DNA of 15,362 nt from a virus (taxonomy: Duplodnaviria; Heunggongvirae; Uroviricota; Caudoviricetes), in the IMG/VR virus record IMGVR_UViG_2721755498_000003. The stretch is one strand, 5' to 3'. The notes under the pieces are model-generated. The model did not search any database. It was not told the DNA's origin and saw nothing but the letters and a program-made list of their open reading frames with translations. A program made the translations under genes and the position numbers. Shown here one piece after another: positions 20 through 14,382 of the stretch (its first letter is position 1; the number at the start of each line of letters is the position of its first letter).

Positions 20-1315
20 TTAATTTTTCATTGCTTCGTTATGGGGCATGGTTGGGGCAAACTCGCTTAACTGTGTATTTAACAAAGCTACCTGTGCATT
101 ATTGTTTTCAGACATCCATTTTCCGTATACCTGAAATACCATTTGCGCATTTGCATGGCCCATCTGGTTTGCTATAAATGCCGGGTTAGCACCAGCTGTC
201 AGCGACCAGCAGGCATAAGTATGTCTCGACTGATATGATTTTCGATGGCGGAGTCCGGCACGTTTTATCGCTGCGTCCCACATCTGCCTTATTGAGTCAA
301 CGGTAAAATGGTCACCATAATTTTTTACTCTCGCTGACACTTCAGGTTGAAAAACAAAGGTGCATTTTTGTTTTTCTGTTCTGCCATACTCTCTGAGGTG
401 AACATCAATGATATGCTCTTTGCTCAGTCTCGTTAATGTCATCTGACTCCGGAGAGCGTCGATTGCTGGCTTAATAAGATGAATGACCCGATTGGTTCCC
501 GCCTGTGTTTTTGGTACCGTGAAACGGTCTTTTGCTAAATTTCTCCTGATCATCATTGTTCCATTTTTCAGATCTATGTCCTCCCATCCAAGTGCACACA
601 GCTCACCAGGGCGAACGCCAGTATAAACAGAAACACACCATAAATTTTTTGCTTGCTGATTTCTGCACGCATCGATAAGACGGATAAATTCCTCCCGCGA
701 AAGAGGATCCGGAATGGTTCTTGATTCCTTTAATGGCGAGATCCCCTTAAACGGATTATCTGCCAGGTAACCGTTATCAACACCAAACTGGAACACGGCG
801 TTAAGATTTGTCATGTAATTATTTACAGTTACAGCCGATCTCCCTGGTTGTGTAACAATATAGTTACTTTTGGGGATCTGGTATCCAGTCAGTAGCTCTT
901 TACGAACCTCCAGTAATTTTTCTTTATTAATCGATGAGGCAAGATTTTTTTCACCGATTATGCTCAGGATATTTTTGATGACGGCACGGTATGTGTTGAG
1001 TGATGTTTTGGCGACTTCAGTTTCTTTCAGTGCCAGAAATTTTTCAGCCAGTTCTTTTATGGTTAAATCTTGTCGGGCCTCACCAAATTTTTCCAGATTG
1101 CGTGAGGAGGGAAACTGTTTTGCATAGTCGAAAACACCAGTTTTTATTGCGTAACAAACAGAGGAGCGTAGTTCACCTGCAACGCGCCTGTTTTTTGCTG
1201 TGTCAGGAACCCCCAGATTTTCCCTGACTCTTACGCCTTTATAAACAAACCAGATACGTAATTTCCCTCCATGGTTTTCCACGCCTGTCGGATATTTCAT
1301 TTCAACTTCTCTCAT
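20..1315 (-). CDS. Phage tyrosine integrase (site-specific recombinase)
   Basis: 431-aa ORF at the prophage end. C-terminal region carries the tyrosine-recombinase signature (...SRHTYACW... then ...MGHANAQMVFQVYGKW..., i.e. R/H-x-x-R box and GH...Y catalytic tyrosine, like lambda Int LGHKSDTMASQY). Followed on the same strand by a small xis-like gene. The 3' end abuts the window start, so the att site should lie just left of position 20. Confidence 0.9.
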   Translation of the reverse strand: MREVEMKYPTGVENHGGKLRIWFVYKGVRVRENLGVPDTAKNRRVAGELRSSVCYAIKTGVFDYAKQFPSSRNLEKFGEARQDLTIKELAEKFLALKETEVAKTSLNTYRAVIKNILSIIGEKNLASSINKEKLLEVRKELLTGYQIPKSNYIVTQPGRSAVTVNNYMTNLNAVFQFGVDNGYLADNPFKGISPLKESRTIPDPLSREEFIRLIDACRNQQAKNLWCVSVYTGVRPGELCALGWEDIDLKNGTMMIRRNLAKDRFTVPKTQAGTNRVIHLIKPAIDALRSQMTLTRLSKEHIIDVHLREYGRTEKQKCTFVFQPEVSARVKNYGDHFTVDSIRQMWDAAIKRAGLRHRKSYQSRHTYACWSLTAGANPAFIANQMGHANAQMVFQVYGKWMSENNNAQVALLNTQLSEFAPTMPHNEAMKN

Positions 1316-1334
1316 TAGTTAGTGTGGCTTTTAG

Positions 1335-1586
1335 TTAAGTAAGATGACGTCTTGGTCTCGCTGATGCCTGGCGCTCAATCCAGCGATCAATTTCTTCCAG
1401 GTTGTAAAAGCATGGACTGTTATCCCATGGCATACCGTCATGAGCGACATGCTTATATTCCCTTCCTTCCATAAACGATTTTTCCCGGGCCTTTTTTAAC
1501 GTACCTTTTTTTATTCCTTTCAGCGCAATTAACTGCTCTTCGGATACCCATTTGCCGGGAGAGACAATCATGATTACTTCGCTCAT
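1335..1586 (-). CDS. Excisionase-like small protein (Xis-type directionality factor)
   Basis: 83-aa ORF immediately upstream of int on the same strand with a 19-nt gap; basic C-terminus (RQASARPRRH). Size and position are typical of lambdoid xis. Function assigned mainly by context. Confidence 0.6.
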   Translation of the reverse strand: MSEVIMIVSPGKWVSEEQLIALKGIKKGTLKKAREKSFMEGREYKHVAHDGMPWDNSPCFYNLEEIDRWIERQASARPRRHLT

Positions 1587-1658
1587 CGATTTCTTTATCT
1601 CTTACATCAGACGAGCGCCGGTTGCAGAATACCAGTCACAACCGGCGACAGTTGAACA

Positions 1659-4130
1659 TTAAGAATCAGCCTGACTCGGGATCAGTTTTTGCCAGATAAC
1701 TGAAACGTATTTTGCCTGGTAACGGGCGTCATCAAGTGCATTATGGCGCTCACCTTCGAATGGAATAGCCGTTCTGGCATCGAAGTCTATGGCTTTCCCC
1801 AGCTCAACGATTGTGCGTACATCGCGATCGTTGTAGTAACGCCACGGGCAGGGGATCCCCTGCCGTTCGTATGAACGGCGCAAAATCGTGTTGTCGAAGT
1901 TGGCTCCATTTCCCCAAACCTGAACAAAAAATTCACCGGAGTTTTCGTCGATAAATTCCCGCAATTGTAACAGTGCATCATCTAACGGGATTTCATCGGT
2001 CATAATGGCAGATTGCGCTTCGCGTGATTGCTTAAGCCACCATTTAATGGTGTCCCGATCAATGACTCCGCCAGCAGTTTCCAGATCGATAGTCTTACTA
2101 TATTCCGGTCCCATATCTCCGGTTTGCGGATCGAAAAATATTGCACCTATTGAGATGATCGGGGCATCAGGATTTTTTCCCATGGTTTCAAGGTCGATCA
2201 TTAGATGGTCACACGTCCTGCTGGTGGATGTGATTTCGTGATGACCGTTCACCTTAATTGGGTGATCTGCCGTCTCGCCAGTTTCATTATCGCTATTGTG
2301 ATGCTGATTGCCGCCAGTGTTCTCCTTGTGTGGATGTTCAGCGCCTTCCATTTCCTCCGGATCATCTTCCTGAACTTCAACCTGATACTCTTCATCGAAT
2401 GTTTCTTGGTATGTTGCGTCGCCCATCACCGCGCCACAATCAGGGCAGTTGCCGCCGCCGGTCTGACCGCAGGCGGTGCAGACTTTTTCCACTTCCTGTT
2501 GCGCCACTGGTTCAGGCTGTTTCGTTTCTGGCTCGTTTTGTAACGCATTTGGACTGTTTTGTTCCGCTTTTTGGTAGTTCCGTTCCGATTCATGCTGGTT
2601 CTGGTTCACAGAATCGCGGGTCTGGATCCCCTTAACCCATTTCGGATCATTCGGGTCACTAATCCCTTCAACAAATTCACCACGTGATGCAGCAAGCAAC
2701 TTATCGGCGTCAGGCTGGCTGATATTGGCTGCCTGCATAATTTTGTTTACTTCGTCAGCGGTAACTTTTATCGGCTCTGGTTGTTCTGAATCTTCAGCGG
2801 TATCTACATTTTGCGGTAAGCCCGTGTATGTGCCATTTTTTCGGGCAAAATATTCTTCTTTTGTGATTTCAGTGGCGCCAGCAGCCAGTGCCTTATCCAG
2901 ACCAGAAAGTTTGTTTGCGCGACCGTATTTTTCTCCGTCCTTATCTGCGAAGAGGAAATAGAACGGCCCCTCACGCTCTACAGATGGTTCAGCTTCCGGC
3001 GCGGTTTCATTTTTTGGGATATCAGATACCTCAGTTTCCACTGCATCAGTTTGTGTTTCTGATGACTGGAGAACATCAACAGTGCCCAGGTCTGTTTCTT
3101 CATTCTCAAACACGCCCTTTGTCGTCAGGTATTCGCAGATATATTTGTTCAGTGCTATGGGATCTTTGTGAATGTCGATCGGACGCTCACGGACAAGGCC
3201 AAAAATAGTCTGGCGGTCGTAGCGAAGGGCATCAGGCTGTTTGCGCATTGATGCCGAGATACGCTTCCAGTCTTCGCGGTCGTTGTCGATAACTTCTTTT
3301 TTTGCCCAGCGATGGATGCTGCCGTCAATGTTTCCGGCATCCACATCACCAGGCCAGAGAGCGTAGGCCAGTTCGTCATCCAGTGTTTTCCATGTCTGCT
3401 TGTATTCGCGATGAATGGCAGCAATGACCGGGCTGATTTTTCCTGTTGAATTTTCAGTGTACTGTTGATTGGTTCTGGCGCGGGCGAGATCAACAACAGA
3501 CGTGTATTTTCCGGTTTCCTTGCGTTCACCTTCGCGACGTTTTTTCCAGATGCGCATCTCTGCCTGAATTTCGGGCCATTTAGCACCAGGAATACATTTA
3601 TGCTTAACCCACCCAATGGCGTGCAACTTAAGCTCCGGATACATGGCGTTAACTTCTGGCATTTTCATCAACGCTTCAACGATATGTCCGTCGAATGTTG
3701 CCATGTCTTCCTGCAACAATTCCTGTGCGCTAATAACCATATCAACGGTGATGTTTTCACATGTGTCGAACTTAACCATGACAGCGTTCTGTACTTCAGG
3801 GGCCAGCTTGTCAAAAGTGACGTTCATCGGATCGGATTCAGTCTCAACCGGGACAAAAGAAGCAGACTCCTCATCCCAGCGGTTTTCCTGCATATATTCA
3901 GCATCCCATGAATCGAGGGCAGGGCGGGGTATGCCAGGTTTATCCTCGCAGACAATAAATTTATAAGCGCAGTCCTGAGCAGCCGGATAATGTTCCAGGA
4001 ACTGCCAGTGAAATTTTGCTCGAGCACGGCGTTCGTCGCCAGCTTCAATGGCTGTGGCTACAGCCACAGCGCCTTCTTCCCTTGTTGCCAGTTCGTCAGG
4101 AATAGCGGCGCAAATAAAGACTTTACTCAT
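1659..4130 (-). CDS. RecE-like exodeoxyribonuclease VIII-family protein with C-terminal DnaQ-like DEDDh 3'-5' exonuclease domain
   Basis: 823-aa ORF with GAGG RBS upstream of the ATG at 4128-4130. Central segment KLLAASRGEFVEGISDPNDPKWVKGIQTRD matches the conserved RecE core as I recall it. C-terminal ~180 aa carry DEDDh motifs (HLMIDLETMG ... FDNT ... HNALDDARYQ). Long Asp/Glu-rich linkers and a C-x2-C-x7-C-x2-C zinc ribbon (CTACGQTGGGNCPDC, nt 2436-2480). Confidence 0.8.
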   Translation of the reverse strand: MSKVFICAAIPDELATREEGAVAVATAIEAGDERRARAKFHWQFLEHYPAAQDCAYKFIVCEDKPGIPRPALDSWDAEYMQENRWDEESASFVPVETESDPMNVTFDKLAPEVQNAVMVKFDTCENITVDMVISAQELLQEDMATFDGHIVEALMKMPEVNAMYPELKLHAIGWVKHKCIPGAKWPEIQAEMRIWKKRREGERKETGKYTSVVDLARARTNQQYTENSTGKISPVIAAIHREYKQTWKTLDDELAYALWPGDVDAGNIDGSIHRWAKKEVIDNDREDWKRISASMRKQPDALRYDRQTIFGLVRERPIDIHKDPIALNKYICEYLTTKGVFENEETDLGTVDVLQSSETQTDAVETEVSDIPKNETAPEAEPSVEREGPFYFLFADKDGEKYGRANKLSGLDKALAAGATEITKEEYFARKNGTYTGLPQNVDTAEDSEQPEPIKVTADEVNKIMQAANISQPDADKLLAASRGEFVEGISDPNDPKWVKGIQTRDSVNQNQHESERNYQKAEQNSPNALQNEPETKQPEPVAQQEVEKVCTACGQTGGGNCPDCGAVMGDATYQETFDEEYQVEVQEDDPEEMEGAEHPHKENTGGNQHHNSDNETGETADHPIKVNGHHEITSTSRTCDHLMIDLETMGKNPDAPIISIGAIFFDPQTGDMGPEYSKTIDLETAGGVIDRDTIKWWLKQSREAQSAIMTDEIPLDDALLQLREFIDENSGEFFVQVWGNGANFDNTILRRSYERQGIPCPWRYYNDRDVRTIVELGKAIDFDARTAIPFEGERHNALDDARYQAKYVSVIWQKLIPSQADS

Positions 4131-9115: not shown

Positions 9116-9757
9116 ATGCGAAAGTTCAAAATTATTATTGAAACGGAAATAGCTGGTGGAGATTTTGAGGATGTATTCGAAGTGGACGATAACGCAACAC
9201 CTGATGAAATTCATGACGGAGCATAAGAAATTTTCTTTAACTACTGCAATTACTCATACCACGAAATAAAAGACGATGAGGAAGAACAAAGTGGCTGATT
9301 TTTGTTCAGCTAAATATAACATCAGTTTTGAAGAGCGGGATGAACTATTAATGGACTATGGTGAATTACGCGGTGGAAGTGCTGCTGATGTCGAATCCTA
9401 GCGTGATGACTATGAAGCGGGAAAAACTCCGGTCGAAGCATATTGTGATGAGTGGGGCGATGAATGAGCGAGATTAATTATCAGGAAGGGCATGAAACGG
9501 CGGGGCAAGCAAAACCAGTGGCATGGCGATATCGCTACGTGAAAAAAGCGTTACGGACTTTCAGGGGAAGTAGTGGTCTGGTGACTGGAAATATGTACCG
9601 AAAAAAGAGGATTGTAACGACAGGCCGAACTATCAAATTCAGGCCTTATTCACTGCCTCACCAGTCCCGGTTACATCAGAAGAACTGGTTAAAGCTGTGC
9701 ACTTTTATGAACAACTAAAACGCGAAAATCCACCAACATCCGGCAACTAGATTAATG
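9116..9757 (+). pseudogene. Frameshifted/interrupted remnants of small acidic phage ORFs
   Basis: Protein-like reading frames are split by stops and frame changes: 9116-9226 (MRKFKIIIETEIAGGDFEDVFEVDDNATPDEIHDGA), an in-frame continuation to 9298, 9276-9401, 9464-9718, and a +1 frame reading ...DWKYVPKKEDCNDRPNYQIQALFTASPVPVTSEELVKAVHFYEQLKRENPPTSGN ending at 9750. Confidence 0.3.
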
Positions 9758-10004
9758 GATTAACTATGTCGGTTAAACGACCAGCCAACTGAAAAAGCGG
9801 AAACCTGATTACAGGTTGCCAGATAAGGCAATGAGCTACCTGGCGCGGAACGGACTGATAAGTATGGGGAATGTTTTACGATGAACCTTTAGACTAAAGA
9901 GTTTGTAACGCTATGTAAGTGATTTTTTCTGGTTTAGATGTTTATATGTCCGGCCAAATTGAGGTGTGTTTAAATGTAATTGCACATTGATTGTAGGAGG
10001 AATA

Positions 10005-10184
10005 ATGAAAAACGCATTGCAGTTTTTGTTTGTTGCGTTCTGGTTGTTCGCATCATGTATGCCCATCATCTTCACAGCAAGGTATATGGAAAAAGTTGAT
10101 GTTTTGATATTAATATTTGGATATATAAATGCCCTTTTTTTAGGGGTGTTCATGGCGGTCATGTGCATTGAATACTGGCGGTAA
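10005..10184 (+). CDS. Small hydrophobic membrane protein (59 aa, two predicted TM segments)
   Basis: Start at ATG 10005 with a strong RBS (TAGGAGG) 4 nt upstream. Translation MKNALQFLFVAFWLFASCMPIIFTARYMEKVDVLILIFGYINALFLGVFMAVMCIEYWR. AT-rich codon usage unlike the flanking phage genes. Confidence 0.45.
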   Translation: MKNALQFLFVAFWLFASCMPIIFTARYMEKVDVLILIFGYINALFLGVFMAVMCIEYWR

Positions 10185-10518
10185 ATACAGCGAACTCCAT
10201 TGGTTTAGTTGGATATTTACTGTGCTGGACAAAAACGGTTTGCGGGGAAATCTTAGTTAAGTAGAATGACTGCGGGTGCTTGAGGCTATCTGCCTCGGGC
10301 ATGGACACCAACGGCAGATAGAGAAAAGCCCCAGTTAACATTACGCGTCCTGCAAGACGCTTAACATTAATCTGAGGCCAATTTCATGCTAGACACATGT
10401 AGGTTAGCCTCTTACGTGCCGAAAGGCACGGAGAAGCAGGCTATTGTTAACACCAAGCTGTAATGTCCCCTTTGAACCATTCTAAAATGTCCCCAGACAA
10501 TTCTCTGGGGGATTTTTC

Positions 10519-11859
10519 ATGATCAAAGAGACTGTTACGATGAGTCATAAGGAACTCCACCGACTTCAGATTATTCAGGAGTCAATTAATCGACATATTA
10601 CTCAGGAACAAGCTGCGGCACGCATTGGCATTTCTATTCGGCAGGTTAAACGTCTGGTGCAACGGTATAGAAATGAAGGGCCTTCTGGTCTGGTTTCCCA
10701 CCGACGTGGAAAGCGTCCTAATAATTCCTTTTCTACTGAATTCAGAGCAACAGTAATTTCACTCCTCAAAGGCCGTTACGCTGATTTTGGACCTACGTTT
10801 GCGTGCGAAAAATTGCGCGAGATACACGGTTTATCTTTATCCGTTGAAACTCTCAGAAAGTGGATGATAGAAGAGGGGTTATGGCGTGAACGCCGTCGTA
10901 AAATTGCCCGTATATATCAACGCCGCATGCGACGACCATCTTACGGTGAACTGATCCAGATTGATGGCTCACCTCATGACTGGTTTGAAAATCGAGGCCC
11001 CAGATGTACACTGATCGTTTTCATTGATGATGCCACCAGTGCGTTGATGGCGTTGCGTTTTGTGCCTGCTGAAACAACCCGGGCTTACATGGAAACCCTC
11101 CGGGGTTACCTTAATGATCATGGCGTACCGCTCGCTCTCTACTCTGATAGACACAGTATATTCAGGGTAAATAACCCAGAGCGGGAAGGTGAGCTGACCC
11201 AGTTCACTCGTGCGATAAAGACACTGGGCATCGAGCCAATCCATGCCAACAGCCCGCAGGCAAAAGGGCGGGTAGAGCGCGCCAATCAGACACTACAGGA
11301 CAGGCTGGTCAAAGAAATGCGGCTTCAGAATATCAGTGATATTGAAACAGCAAATGCATGGTTGCCGACCTTTATTGAAGCCTATAACAACCGGTTCGCT
11401 ACGTCGCCTCGTACTACTGATAATGCTCATCTTGATGTGCACCATTCTGAAGAGGAACTGGGTTATATCTTCAGCCTACAGGCGAAGCGCGTTCTGTCTA
11501 AAAATCTCACTTTCCAGTACAAAAGCAGTGCGTTTCAGGTACGCAGTGAGAGCCGGGGATATCGACTTAGGCATTCGGTTGTTACTGTATGCGAGAACTT
11601 TGACGGTGAAATTAACGTTCTGTATGACGGGAAAGCGCTGGGCTGGGAAAAGTATGTTGATGGCCCGGAGCCTATACCACTGGATGATGAAAAGAGTGTC
11701 CATGAACGAGTGGATAATGCCCGTATTGATTTACGCTCAAAATACTATGTTAAACCTAAAGCTGACCATCCCTGGCTTACGCGCCGAACGCAAAGTCATC
11801 AGCAAGTTAAGCCCCCGAAGTTACCTAAAAAGAAGCCTGATCCCGATAAAAAAGATTGA
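10519..11859 (+). CDS. DDE transposase with N-terminal HTH and rve-type integrase core (single-ORF IS, ISNCY/IS1202-like)
   Basis: 446-aa ORF with RBS GGGGGA 7 nt upstream. HTH region QEQAAARIGISIRQVKRLV. Catalytic triad candidates: D in IQIDGSPHDW, D in LYSDRHSIF, E in KGRVERANQTLQ. Basic Lys/Pro-rich C-terminal tail. Family assignment is from memory, not a search. Confidence 0.85.
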   Translation: MIKETVTMSHKELHRLQIIQESINRHITQEQAAARIGISIRQVKRLVQRYRNEGPSGLVSHRRGKRPNNSFSTEFRATVISLLKGRYADFGPTFACEKLREIHGLSLSVETLRKWMIEEGLWRERRRKIARIYQRRMRRPSYGELIQIDGSPHDWFENRGPRCTLIVFIDDATSALMALRFVPAETTRAYMETLRGYLNDHGVPLALYSDRHSIFRVNNPEREGELTQFTRAIKTLGIEPIHANSPQAKGRVERANQTLQDRLVKEMRLQNISDIETANAWLPTFIEAYNNRFATSPRTTDNAHLDVHHSEEELGYIFSLQAKRVLSKNLTFQYKSSAFQVRSESRGYRLRHSVVTVCENFDGEINVLYDGKALGWEKYVDGPEPIPLDDEKSVHERVDNARIDLRSKYYVKPKADHPWLTRRTQSHQQVKPPKLPKKKPDPDKKD

Positions 11860-11913
11860 AACCAAGATCGATTCGGTTGAGTGCATATCCATTCATAGGG
11901 TAGATTCTTAAGT

Positions 11914-11979
11914 CGCGTTTCTGGTGTTCATTTTCGGGTGGTTTGTTACTTGTTTTACCGGGGATATGCCAGAAACGCG
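11914..11979. repeat. Perfect 11-bp inverted repeat (CGCGTTTCTGG ... CCAGAAACGCG) with 44-nt loop
   Basis: Arms at 11914-11924 and 11969-11979, 55 nt downstream of the transposase stop. The loop contains the alternative right-end candidate. Confidence 0.6.
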
Positions 11980-12254
11980 CTGAGTCAGTCTGGGCGGTGC
12001 GCGTAATGAGGCGTTATGGTAAATAGCCTATGCTAATGTCCGCTAAGAGCAAGAAGCGGAAGTTGGCATTTTTGTGGACTGTCCCCACAAAAGTGACTAC
12101 AGAAATAGTTGCAATTCATAATTGATCATGGGTTGTCAGTTAAACTCGTGGCGATTTAAATAGACTAATTGGGAGTGCGTCCATTACTTATATCTTGTAA
12201 TGTTAACTATCAGAAATGATACAAAGATAATATGTCTTTAAAGAAAAGGCTGAT

Positions 12255-12281
12255 GGCGAAAAGTGGCCCGATGAGGGCCAC
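12255..12281 (-). terminator. Probable intrinsic terminator of flxA
   Basis: Minus-strand hairpin GTGGCCC-TCATC-GGGCCAC followed by TTTTCG, immediately after the flxA stop. Confidence 0.45.
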
Positions 12282-12295
12282 AATACGGCTGTCAC

Positions 12296-12628
12296 TTAGA
12301 CGTAAATATCAATGGTGCCAGCGGTATTTGTATCGTCTTTTTTCTCTTCTTTTTTATCAGGCTGAACTGTCGCGTCTTCATTCTTTTTCTCTGCCTGCTG
12401 CCTTAACAACTGCTCCAGTTGAGCCCAGAGGCTTTCAATTTGCTTCTGTACCAATGCAGCCATTTCTTTTTTCTGCTGTGTCGTCATCCCCTCTTCCGAT
12501 GAGATTTTCCCAAGCTTTTCAGTCAGCACCTGAATTTGTCTTGTGATTTTGGCTATTTCTGATGTTCCTTCCGGGGCGGAGTTGTTTGAAATAACGGTTG
12601 AGGTATTTCCCTGAATTGTGACAGACAT
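12296..12628 (-). CDS. flxA: FlxA-like protein (FliA/sigma-28-regulated, Gln/Lys-rich coiled-coil-like)
   Basis: 110-aa ORF (MSVTIQGNTSTVISNNSAPEGTSEIAKITRQIQVLTEKL...) with AAGGAG RBS and a canonical sigma-28 promoter immediately upstream. Confidence 0.75.
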   Translation of the reverse strand: MSVTIQGNTSTVISNNSAPEGTSEIAKITRQIQVLTEKLGKISSEEGMTTQQKKEMAALVQKQIESLWAQLEQLLRQQAEKKNEDATVQPDKKEEKKDDTNTAGTIDIYV

Positions 12629-12651
12629 AGATTTCTCCTTTTAAAAAAGCA

Positions 12652-12678
12652 CTATCGGCATGAACAAAAAAATCTTTA
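12652..12678 (-). promoter_or_regulatory. Sigma-28 (FliA) promoter for flxA
   Basis: Minus-strand TAAA-N15-GCCGATAG (consensus TAAA-N15-GCCGATAA). -35 TAAA is the complement of 12675-12678; -10 is the complement of 12652-12659; spacer exactly 15 nt; about 24 nt before the flxA ATG. Confidence 0.7.
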
Positions 12679-12830
12679 ATCGTATTTCTTGTGTCATTAA
12701 TTGTTTGATGTTCAGATTGTTTTCCTCGCGGGCTGGCGCGCCTCAGAAAGTAAAGCTTGTTGACAGGGGTAAACGTTCGGCAATAATTTTCTGCCGCATG
12801 CGGGTGTTGCATAAAACGTGTTACGTTCCT

Positions 12831-13136
12831 TTATCGACAGGTCAGGTCACCGCTCACCCGCCGACGAGAAAGCAACACTGACATGCTAAAGCAAAAAATA
12901 GATGAATAAGTTGAGTTGTGCATATGTAGCCTGACCGTCACAAAGTATATGGTGTCTGTACCAGTAAGATGATGGCCGGACTCTTTAAAAACGAGCTGAC
13001 CTGCACAATACAGGATGGACTTAGCAATGGCTGCTCCTGGCAGAAAGCGGACAGTGATCACCGTTCTTACGACTACTTTCTGACTTCCTTCGTGACTTGC
13101 CCTAAGCATGTTGTAGTGCGATACTTGTAATGACAT
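12831..13136 (-). CDS. YdfV-like hypothetical ORF (101 aa), doubtful
   Basis: 101-aa ORF between flxA and relB, matching the size and position of the ydfV annotation in Qin. No clear RBS; its 5' end overlaps the relB promoter; composition is not convincingly protein-like. Confidence 0.3.
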   Translation of the reverse strand: MSLQVSHYNMLRASHEGSQKVVVRTVITVRFLPGAAIAKSILYCAGQLVFKESGHHLTGTDTIYFVTVRLHMHNSTYSSIFCFSMSVLLSRRRVSGDLTCR

Positions 13137-13148
13137 TTGTAATTACAA
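13097..13148 (+). promoter_or_regulatory. relBE promoter and relO operator
   Basis: -35 TTGCCC (13097-13102), 17-nt spacer, -10 GATACT (13120-13125). Repeated TTGTAAT hexads including the perfect palindrome TTGTAATTACAA (13137-13148), just upstream of the relB RBS AGAGGTG. Confidence 0.7.
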
Positions 13149-13160
13149 GAGGTGTAAGAC

Positions 13161-13400
13161 ATGGGTAGCATTAACCTGCGTATTGACGATGAACTTAAAG
13201 CGCGTTCTTACGCCGCGCTTGAAAAAATGGGTGTAACTCCTTCTGAAGCGCTTCGTCTCATGCTCGAGTATATCGCTGACAATGAACGCTTGCCGTTCAA
13301 ACAGACACTCCTGAGTGATGAAGATGCTGAACTTGTGGAGATAGTGAAAGAACGGCTTCGTAATCCTAAGCCAGTACGTGTGACGCTGGATGAACTCTGA
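13161..13400 (+). CDS. relB: RelB antitoxin
   Basis: 79-aa ORF MGSINLRIDDELKARSYAALEKMGVTPSEALRLMLEYIADNERLPFKQ..., recognisably RelB. Its stop overlaps the relE start in a TGATG arrangement. Confidence 0.9.
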   Translation: MGSINLRIDDELKARSYAALEKMGVTPSEALRLMLEYIADNERLPFKQTLLSDEDAELVEIVKERLRNPKPVRVTLDEL

Positions 13401-13687
13401 TGGCGTATTTTCTGGATTTTGACGAGCGGGCACTAAAGGAATGGCGAAAGCTGGGCTCGACGGTACGTGAACAGTTGAAAAAGAAGCTGGTTGAAGTACT
13501 TGAGTCACCCCGGATTGAAGCAAACAAGCTCCGTGGTATGCCTGATTGTTACAAGATTAAGCTCCGATCTTCAGGCTATCGCCTTGTATACCAGGTTATA
13601 GACGAGAAAGTTGTCGTTTTCGTGATTTCTGTTGGGAAAAGAGAACGCTCGGAAGTATATAGCGAGGCGGTCAAACGCATTCTCTGA
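13400..13687 (+). CDS. relE: RelE toxin (ribosome-dependent mRNA interferase)
   Basis: 95-aa ORF MAYFLDFDERALKEWRKLGSTVREQLKKKLVEVLESPRIEANKLRGMPDCYKIKLRSSGYRLVYQVIDEKVVVFVISVGKRERSEVYSEAVKRIL, recognisably RelE. Confidence 0.9.
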   Translation: MAYFLDFDERALKEWRKLGSTVREQLKKKLVEVLESPRIEANKLRGMPDCYKIKLRSSGYRLVYQVIDEKVVVFVISVGKRERSEVYSEAVKRIL

Positions 13688-13758
13688 ACCAAAGCATGAC
13701 ATCTCTGTTTCGCACCGAAGGTGACACTTCTGCTTTGCGTTGACAGGAGAAGCAGGCT

Positions 13759-13914
13759 ATGAAGCAGCAAAAGGCGATGTTAATCGCCCTGATCGTCATC
13801 TGTTTAACCGTCATAGTGACGGCACTGGTAACGAGGAAAGACCTCTGCGAGGTACGAATCCGAACCGGCCAGACGGAGGTCGCTGTCTTCACAGCTTACG
13901 AACCTGAGGAGTAA
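13759..13914 (+). CDS. hokD: Hok-family small membrane toxin (HokD/RelF)
   Basis: Below the six-frame size cutoff. Hand translation gives MKQQKAMLIALIVICLTVIVTALVTRKDLCEVRIRTGQTEVAVFTAYEPEE (51 aa), with GGAG RBS 8 nt upstream. A 15-codon upstream ORF (13697-13744) ends 14 nt before the start. Confidence 0.8.
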   Translation: MKQQKAMLIALIVICLTVIVTALVTRKDLCEVRIRTGQTEVAVFTAYEPEE

Positions 13915-13984
13915 GAGACTCGGCGAGTGAGAAATCCCTCGCCACCTCTGATGTGGCAGGCATCCTCAACGCACCCGCACTTAA

Positions 13985-14014
13985 CCCGCTTCGGCGGGTT
14001 TTTGTTTTTATTTT
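13985..14014 (+). terminator. Rho-independent terminator after relBE-hokD
   Basis: CCCGC-TTCG-GCGGG hairpin (UUCG tetraloop) followed by TTTTTGTTTTTATTTT. Confidence 0.8.
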
Positions 14015-14130
14015 CAACGCATTTGAAGTTCTGGATGGTGCCGGAATAGAATCAAAAATACTTAAGTAGCGCGCAGGGATAAGAGGGATGGTCCCTTAAA
14101 GGGGAGAGCTAATTATCCGGAAGGATTCTG

Positions 14131-14382
14131 ATGATGAACATCGAAGAACTGCGTAAAATTTTTTGTGAAGATGGCCTCTATGCTGTGTGCGTTGAAAATG
14201 GAAATATTGCTAGTCATTACCGCATTGTGTGTTTGCAAAAAAATGGGGCTGCGTTAATTAATTATGTGGATGCCCGAGTGACGGACGGATTTATCTTGCG
14301 CGACGGTGAGTTTGTCACTTCATTACAGGCATTAAAAGAGATCGGAATAAAAGCTGGCTTTTCTGCTTTTTCAGAAGAATAA
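14131..14382 (+). CDS. rem: Rem-like small protein (83 aa)
   Basis: 83-aa ORF in the position of rem downstream of hokD in Qin. Identity is by size, order and recollection. Confidence 0.55.
   Translation: MMNIEELRKIFCEDGLYAVCVENGNIASHYRIVCLQKNGAALINYVDARVTDGFILRDGEFVTSLQALKEIGIKAGFSAFSEE

Follow-up and report, generated by a model that had tools for sequence, protein, structure and literature searches.

What are the limits of the mobile DNA that carries the transposase gene of this prophage, and what travels with it? The stretch analysed here (the window) is a 15,362-nucleotide Caudoviricetes record, IMGVR_UViG_2721755498_000003, in which an earlier note had placed the transposase between the arms of a perfect 12-bp inverted repeat or, alternatively, between TGT-type ends at 10464 and 11966. 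Comparison with other copies and with unoccupied sites indicates that positions 10445–13745 form one transposon of the IS1202 family, 3,301 bp long, inserted in the hok/sok locus of a Qin-type prophage; we put the probability of this reading at about 0.88. The element has TGT...ACA ends with an imperfect terminal inverted repeat (22/30), is flanked by a perfect 15-bp target-site duplication (GGAGAAGCAGGCTAT) and contains the transposase gene, flxA, ydfV and relB–relE. The note was right that a transposase-bearing mobile element is present and that the compact models describe it poorly, and its suspicion of passenger sequence is borne out by the cargo. The features of the locus are as follows.

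10274–10444, plus strand: hok mRNA leader and antisense sok; upstream half of the target, cut at the ‘AT’ of the hok start codon
10430–10444, no strand: left target-site duplication GGAGAAGCAGGCTAT, running from the hok ribosome-binding site to the ‘AT’ of ATG; single copy in the empty sites L092 and L094
10445–10474, plus strand: left inverted repeat (IRL) TGTTAACACCAAGCTGTAATGTCCCCTTTG; more than 10 unrelated left flanks abut its first base; 22/30 match to the right end
10519–11859, plus strand: transposase, IS1202 family (ISEsa1-like), 446 aa, uninterrupted reading frame
12036–12064, no strand: inner end of the conserved transposase arm; relatives have the palindrome AATGTCCGC-N12-GCGGACATT, and the window reads GCGGAAGTT
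12065–13033, no strand: variable cargo, with flxA (12296–12628, minus strand) and most of ydfV (12831–13136, minus strand)
13034–13745, plus strand: conserved right arm, with the relB promoter region, relB (13161–13400), relE (13400–13687) and the right end
13716–13745, plus strand: right inverted repeat (IRR) CGAAGGTGACACTTCTGCTTTGCGTTGACA, ending ACA-3'; 22/30 inverted match to IRL, with the duplicated target directly after it at four independent sites
13746–13760, no strand: right target-site duplication GGAGAAGCAGGCTAT, an exact second copy that abuts the right end
13759–13914, plus strand: hokD (relF), encoding a 51-aa toxin; the part of the split hok locus downstream of the insertion; HokD is WP_000813254.1 in an identical genome

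The borders of the element are defined by sites that lack it. Phage vB_EcoS-640R1 (L092) and a prophage of E. coli 4/2-1 (L094) have a contiguous, intact hok locus that matches window 9798–10444 at 96% and window 13745–14009 at 97%. In both, the two matches overlap by 16 bp (AGGAGAAGCAGGCTAT) within the uninterrupted locus, and the window therefore carries an insertion at 10445–13745; presence/absence borders between genomes fall at the same two positions. The end letters are TGTTAAC... at 10445 and ...GTTGACA at 13745, and the same ends are found in L095, L096, L097 and L098. Copies of the transposase region from plasmids and other genera, at 70–99.7% nucleotide identity, all start at 10445 with TGTTAA. 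Because more than 10 different left flanks meet this base, we assign the left end to 10445; the 12-bp repeat has its left arm 101 bp further out, and the TGT alternative starts 19 bp further in. The left end also contains an inner-repeat motif, TAATGTCCCC, at 10461–10470 and a similar sequence, AAATGTCCCC, at 10485–10494; weaker matches to the motif were identified by eye on the complementary strand of the right end (AAGTGTCACC and AGATGTCATG). A composite transposon is not supported, as 10445–13745 holds one transposase gene and one IRL/IRR pair. The report in the earlier note that no target-site duplication could be found holds for both pairs of boundaries that it proposed, but the true ends carry the perfect 15-bp duplication.

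The target is a hok/sok toxin–antitoxin locus. The Rfam sok model (RF01794) matches 10274–10445 over its full length with 104 bits (gathering score 59), and the plus strand of this segment looks by eye like a hok mRNA leader. Homology to the hok/sok loci of Stx phages, other prophages and plasmids begins before 10200 and continues to exactly 10444. The insertion point lies between the ribosome-binding site and the start codon of hokD, and the insertion splits hokD from its own promoter, mok and sok; in the empty sites the sok leader and hokD are contiguous. The right copy of the duplication regenerates a ribosome-binding site ahead of hokD, which thus becomes the third gene behind relB and relE, the relBEF order known from K-12. 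Co-transcription of relBE and hokD is attributed to Gotfredsen and Gerdes (1998) in a passage of PMC5120126. In the mechanism that we propose, the transposase would cut across the hok ribosome-binding site and start codon with a 15-bp stagger, repair of the staggered cuts would duplicate GGAGAAGCAGGCTAT, and hokD would be left behind relBE as the third gene, forming the classical relBEF operon. Over the stretch compared, window 10200–12400 is 100% identical to the Qin-type lambdoid prophage of E. coli CFSAN064036, and the prophage contains genes for integrase, exonuclease, dicB and replication in addition to the element segment. RelB and RelE are named as such in the Prokaryotic Genome Annotation Pipeline (PGAP) annotation of the identical genome. 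We found no tRNA remnants near 10200–10330.

Copies elsewhere have duplications of their own. The IncI plasmid NZ_CP039299 contains the same 3,301-bp unit, 99.7% identical, in a pndA (hok-family) locus adjoining trbA, where it is flanked by a different 15-bp duplication (TGGAGGGGCTATGAT); the whole 3,301 bp moved into pndA as one piece. Plasmid pMRY16-398_1 carries a 12,843-bp sister element whose left arm (99%) and relB–relE right arm (98%) enclose nickel and chromate resistance genes, with a duplication (GGAGAAGTCAGCTAT) directly before a hok-family open reading frame. The 6,093-bp sister element of the IncHI2 plasmid pEC-IMPQ carries genes for cytochrome b and a cation-diffusion transporter, and its duplication is GGAGAAGAAGGCCAT, before another hok-family reading frame. 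Both of these elements lie between the ribosome-binding site and the ATG of a hok-family gene, and a further copy of a sister element, with a rearranged left flank, is present in pMS7884B. Across the sister elements the left arm is 91–99% identical and the relBE right arm 98%.

The four insertions with verified 15-bp duplications each occupy a different hok-family locus, and each falls across the ribosome-binding site and start codon. In at least seven more loci IRL abuts a hok-type initiation sequence; five of these have an Rfam sok match that ends at the junction, and in L028 the same 15 bp hold a copy that points the other way. The exact junction differs (after AT, ATG or ATGAT), as do the duplicated 15-mers from locus to locus; both kinds of difference favour independent targeting on several occasions over a single inherited event. 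All four verified duplications begin immediately after a small hairpin-forming sequence (e.g. GTGCCGAAAGGCAC) that may be part of the target signal, and the hok initiation region would presumably be recognized as DNA. On these comparisons the element appears to be a member of a modular group that has hit hok-family genes repeatedly. Some more distant relatives are located in non-hok sites, and their right ends were not found within the available 2.5 kb.

Several of the copies have unusual surroundings. In Leclercia sp. EMC7 (L029, 2387–2456), relB–relE and the right end are followed by 10 bp (GAAGGCTATG) and then by the left end of a 72%-identical relative, so that two elements appear to be stacked in one hok target. 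An IMG/VR locus, L178, has a pnd-type left flank (…GGAGGGGCTATGATG) and the Qin hokD as its right flank, and appears to be a recombinant of two inserted copies. In Leclercia adecarboxylata NCTC13032 (L057, 2468–2501), the right end is followed directly by the transposase gene from codon 114, which looks like an internal rearrangement of the element. In Kluyvera (L025, 2337–2450), a 91%-identical copy has a left end whose first ~24 bp are shared with a minus-strand Rfam match to isrO, a Salmonella small RNA.

A compact relative occurs in Hahella sp. SMD15-11 (L033–L043, L060). This insertion sequence is 1,449 bp long, has no cargo and is present in at least 10 copies, with a transposase 62% identical to that of the window. 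Its ends are again TGT...ACA (right end ...GGGTTGACA, ...GTTGACA), IRL is conserved with five mismatches, and the single insertions examined have duplications of 15–17 bp. These shared ends and duplications indicate that a 15-bp duplication and the distal right end fit this branch of the IS1202 family. In L034 two of the Hahella copies lie ~17 bp apart.

The 12-bp inverted repeat must be considered separately, since it was the principal boundary proposed in the earlier note. Its arms are positioned as follows.

10333–10344, no strand: left arm AGTTAACATTAC, inside the sok/hok leader and outside the mobile element
12197–12208, no strand: right arm GTAATGTTAACT, the exact reverse complement, inside the cargo, 88–99 bp past the flxA stop codon

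Both arms exist around the transposase gene, as had been reported, but they bound nothing. Their span is 1,876 bp; the right arm had been placed one base too high, at 12198–12209, which gave 1,877 bp, and a third copy, TTAACATTA, was correctly located at 10361–10369. A 1.88-kb insertion sequence delimited by these arms would account for a repeat that is perfect and infrequent by chance: when the 300 bp to the left and the 400 bp to the right of the transposase reading frame underwent dinucleotide-preserving shuffling, 13 of 3000 trials (0.4%) yielded a perfect inverted match of 12 bp or more, in agreement with the earlier estimate of under 1 percent. With 1-kb flanks the figure rises to 81 of 1000 (8%), and the significance of the repeat is weak in any case because the pair was chosen post hoc. 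Transposon-free hok/sok loci remain homologous across the left arm and as far as 10444, placing both this arm and the third copy inside the sok/hok leader; the arm lies 101–112 bp outside the element and within the Rfam match, and all other copies of the element start at 10445. The two arms also turn up separately in other loci. The left-arm 12-mer alone is found in the intact hok loci L092 and L094, and the right-arm 12-mer accompanies the flxA segment in the IncI plasmid (L098), K-12 (L003) and E. coli EC6622 (L100), with no left arm nearby in any of them. Homology between the cargo around 12197 and hok/sok is limited to the 12-mer, and there is no second Rfam sok match in 9700–14300. An empty-site comparison, named beforehand as the test that could overturn this model, went against it, as the related prophages with an intact hok locus and the comparison of multiple copies give 10445 and 13745. 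We therefore regard a 12-bp-bounded insertion sequence as virtually excluded, and the repeat is best read as a chance match of the sok leader with cargo, arising from this particular insertion.

It is also conceivable that only a simple insertion sequence of ~1.5–1.6 kb is mobile (10464–11966 or 10445–12064), with flxA–ydfV–relBE already present or arriving separately. A 1,620-bp transposase arm does recur, at 70–99.7% identity and with at least six different sequences past 12064, ISEsa1 is listed at a similar 1,609 bp, and the arm ends in GCGGACATT, which resembles a putative inverted transposase-binding site. However, no copy examined has a duplication flanking 10445–12064, in line with the absence of a target-site duplication for ISEsa1 in the literature, and we observed no inverted repeat or duplication at 12064 in any context examined. 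The empty sites lack the entire 3.3 kb, and it is the whole 3,301 bp that lies in pndA with a new 15-bp duplication. The TGT-ended version is excluded outright: the true TGT is at 10445, and conserved element sequence extends past both of its sides, continuing on the right to ~12064. Taken together, these observations make a simple mobile unit unlikely. Less likely still is the entry of relBE alone into the hok locus as a minimal promoter-plus-genes module from plasmids, with the transposase as an unrelated neighbour. PMC6379469, in the part that cites Ramisetty and Santhosh (2016), describes integration of relBE into the hokD region and its origin in plasmids; this earlier work treated relBE as a self-contained module, and RelE is identical in the Qin and plasmid copies. 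Against this, the same right end comes after relBE in every case, and relBE always belongs to a unit that begins with IRL and the transposase gene; it is IRL and IRR, and not relBE, that the duplicated 15-mers enclose.

The single 3,301-bp transposon remains the preferred reading, and the following points weigh against it. ISEsa1 is defined in ISfinder, as reported in PMC10132070, by a length of 1,609 bp, a 15/22 repeat and no duplication. The transposase arm (10445–12064) adjoins unrelated DNA in several genera (L025, L027, L031, L045 and L046), where neither relBE nor a right end or duplication was found within the available 2.5 kb; a shorter unit may also move, or these copies may hold larger cargo. 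A complete 3,301-bp unit in IMG/VR UViG_2912051188_000002 (L133, 1345–4645) occupies a non-hok site and has a 6-bp repeat only (CGCCTT), reflecting either a rearranged junction or off-target insertion with an unusual duplication. Finally, PGAP calls the transposase gene of the identical genome a pseudogene without its C-terminus. This call looks like an artefact of the separate annotation of ydfW: in K-12, ydfW consists of the last 49 codons of the transposase gene (window 11710–11859), and the intact 446-aa gene of full-length copies is consequently split into a truncated pseudogene plus ydfW.

The transposase itself has the properties of an IS1202-family enzyme. It matches NCBIfam NF033594 (‘ISNCY family transposase’) with 466 bits against a cutoff of 250, and Pfam detects an N-terminal helix-turn-helix (HTH_28/29/32/23) followed by an rve_3 core. 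The DDE triad, D149, D210 and E253, is invariant in nine relatives down to 36% identity; a sequence search against solved structures returned no match. A single residue (S345G) separates the protein from WP_004196353.1 (446 aa), the ‘IS1202-like element ISEsa1 family transposase’ found on many plasmids of Klebsiella and Enterobacter, and PGAP gives the transposase of the window the same product name. A stop in homology at residue 430 was considered as a possible right end and proved to be an artefact, the plasmid proteins being 446 aa long as well. Most E. coli copies (e.g. L002, H2–H4 and H94–H118) lack 27 bp between the near-repeats CAGATTATTCAGG and CATATTACTCAGG (window 10567–10606). We rejected the idea that this length difference is a duplication; it is an in-frame indel of nine codons in the helix-turn-helix region of the transposase gene. 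The window and the plasmid copies keep the long form, and the shorter copies may be inactive. The encoded transposase is likely to have made this insertion and to remain active, and the complete 3.3-kb transposon is probably active.

The element has the following features of the IS1202 family, which ISfinder places in its ISNCY group: a transposase length (446 aa) within the family range of 394–507 aa, an N-terminal HTH and a DDE (RNase H-fold) core, 5'-TGT and ACA-3' ends, imperfect terminal repeats (about 22–29 bp in the family) and, in four independent insertions, a 15-bp duplication, where family members fall into classes of 5–6, 15–17 and 27–28 bp. The closest named element is ISEsa1 (1,609 bp, transposase of 439 aa, terminal repeat 15/22, no duplication found; PMC10132070 Table 7). 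With IS1202 and ISEsa1 the present element shares a transposase of ~440–450 aa, TGT...ACA ends with imperfect terminal repeats of about 25–30 bp and, at the left end, an extra copy of the inner repeat; family members have such a copy near each end. It differs from ISEsa1, compared here by PGAP name and the PMC10132070 table, in that the moving unit is 3.3–12.8 kb long, has its right end in a distal position behind relBE and makes clean 15-bp duplications. The ISEsa1 entry probably describes the transposase arm only, which would explain why no target duplication was found for it.

Passenger genes between the ends are also a property of the transporter insertion sequences (tIS) ISKpn21, ISKpn65 and ISRel10 of the same family. 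These contain one extra open reading frame of unknown function, whereas the present group has a fixed toxin–antitoxin module at one end and a variable multi-gene cargo that is swapped at 12064 and 13034. Other IS1202 members (ISAjo2, ISAba71, ISAba32, ISKpn21) insert site-specifically at a fixed distance from a short conserved feature, as seen here, but their targets are dif/pdif sites: their insertions lie 5 bp from the XerC side of such sites (IRL 3–6 bp from the XerC arm), with 5-bp duplications. The present group instead hits the ribosome-binding site and start codon of hok-family genes with 15-bp duplications. We saw no dif-like site next to IRL: set by eye against the sites in PMC10132070, the 33 bp to its left (TTACGTGCCGAAAGGCACGGAGAAGCAGGCTAT) lack a XerC-spacer-XerD pattern, and candidate dif/Xer-like sites at IRL or at the 12-bp repeat arms were unconvincing by eye. 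Tn7-like elements resemble the group in their TGT/ACA ends, several internal transposase-binding repeats and site-specific targeting, and differ in that a single transposase gene is present here, without TnsA/C/D/E-type partners, and the duplication is 15 bp rather than 5 bp.

Between the two conserved arms the contents of the element are exchangeable. Homology to all plasmid and genomic relatives ends at ~12054–12064 and is followed by differing DNA. The right arm is 98.2–98.5% identical to those of L095, L096 and L097, which hold other cargo: ncr/chr metal resistance in L095 and L097, and cytochrome b with a CDF transporter in L096; another gene set is found in L101. The four cargo types always switch at 12064 and 13034, and both borders (12036–12064 and 13034–13054) contain AAGCGGACA-like motifs that resemble putative transposase-binding sites. 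E. coli EC6622 has flxA as a solo module (L100, 3001–4017) that corresponds to window 12036–13052 and has inverted ends, TGTC(C/T)G... and ...C(G/A)GAC, which suggests that the cargo may be a mobilisable cassette. We infer an exchange of cargo between the arms as the route by which these contents vary. The palindrome that ends the transposase arm is often interrupted by other insertion sequences, at the equivalents of 12050–12054 (L011, L012, L017, L018, L028, L029 and L030); these include ISEsa2 (IS110 family) at 12054 and an element starting TGTGAGTTCAAC at 12050. A 165-bp ‘solo’ piece (11901–12065) on plasmids, which might have been an independent module, is an IS26-truncated remnant.

In E. 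coli the unit is common: 759 of 5,426 complete genomes contain at least 80% of the 3,301 bp. K-12 strains keep only unit positions 1231–3301, the right 63%, at a 99.8% match. In these strains a deletion has joined ydfX to mid-transposase sequence at window 11675 (L003). With it went the sok leader, neighbouring prophage genes and the leftmost 1,230 bp of the element, which is why the transposon is unrecognisable there. The RelB, RelE and HokD proteins of the K-12 Qin relBEF/hokD region are identical to those of the window, but the K-12 region is incomplete and the window represents the complete form.

A transposon of the IS1202 family that carries relBE or targets hok did not come up in our literature searches; ISfinder and TnCentral were outside their scope, and a prior registration there is possible. 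A 2025–26 survey of hok loci does not mention the element. With slightly better than even confidence, we propose that the window contains a member of an unrecognised group of IS1202 transposons in Enterobacterales plasmids and prophages. The group would target the initiation region of hok-family genes and carry relBE as a built-in right-end module, so that relBE control takes the place of the antisense control of hok, and its multi-gene cargo (metal resistance, flxA and others) would be swapped at two fixed internal sites with motifs like transposase-binding sites. The relBE(F) region of K-12 would then be a decayed copy, and ISEsa1 the left arm only.

A major toxin–antitoxin family has the E. 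coli K-12 relBE locus as its founding example, and the spread of chromosomal toxin–antitoxin loci has been debated for decades. The transposon described here makes the vehicle of relBE spread visible, with defined ends, a duplication and a target. Insertion of the element between the leader and hokD explains why hokD (relF) lacks sok and mok and is co-transcribed with relBE, and the orphan ‘ydfW/intK’ fragment of K-12 is explained as a remnant of the same element. To a family known so far for dif/Xer sites, the hok toxin genes would add a second kind of target, in which one addiction module physically hijacks another. Nickel and chromate resistance travels in the same vehicle on plasmids of Klebsiella and Enterobacter, KPC-type IncFII backbones among them.

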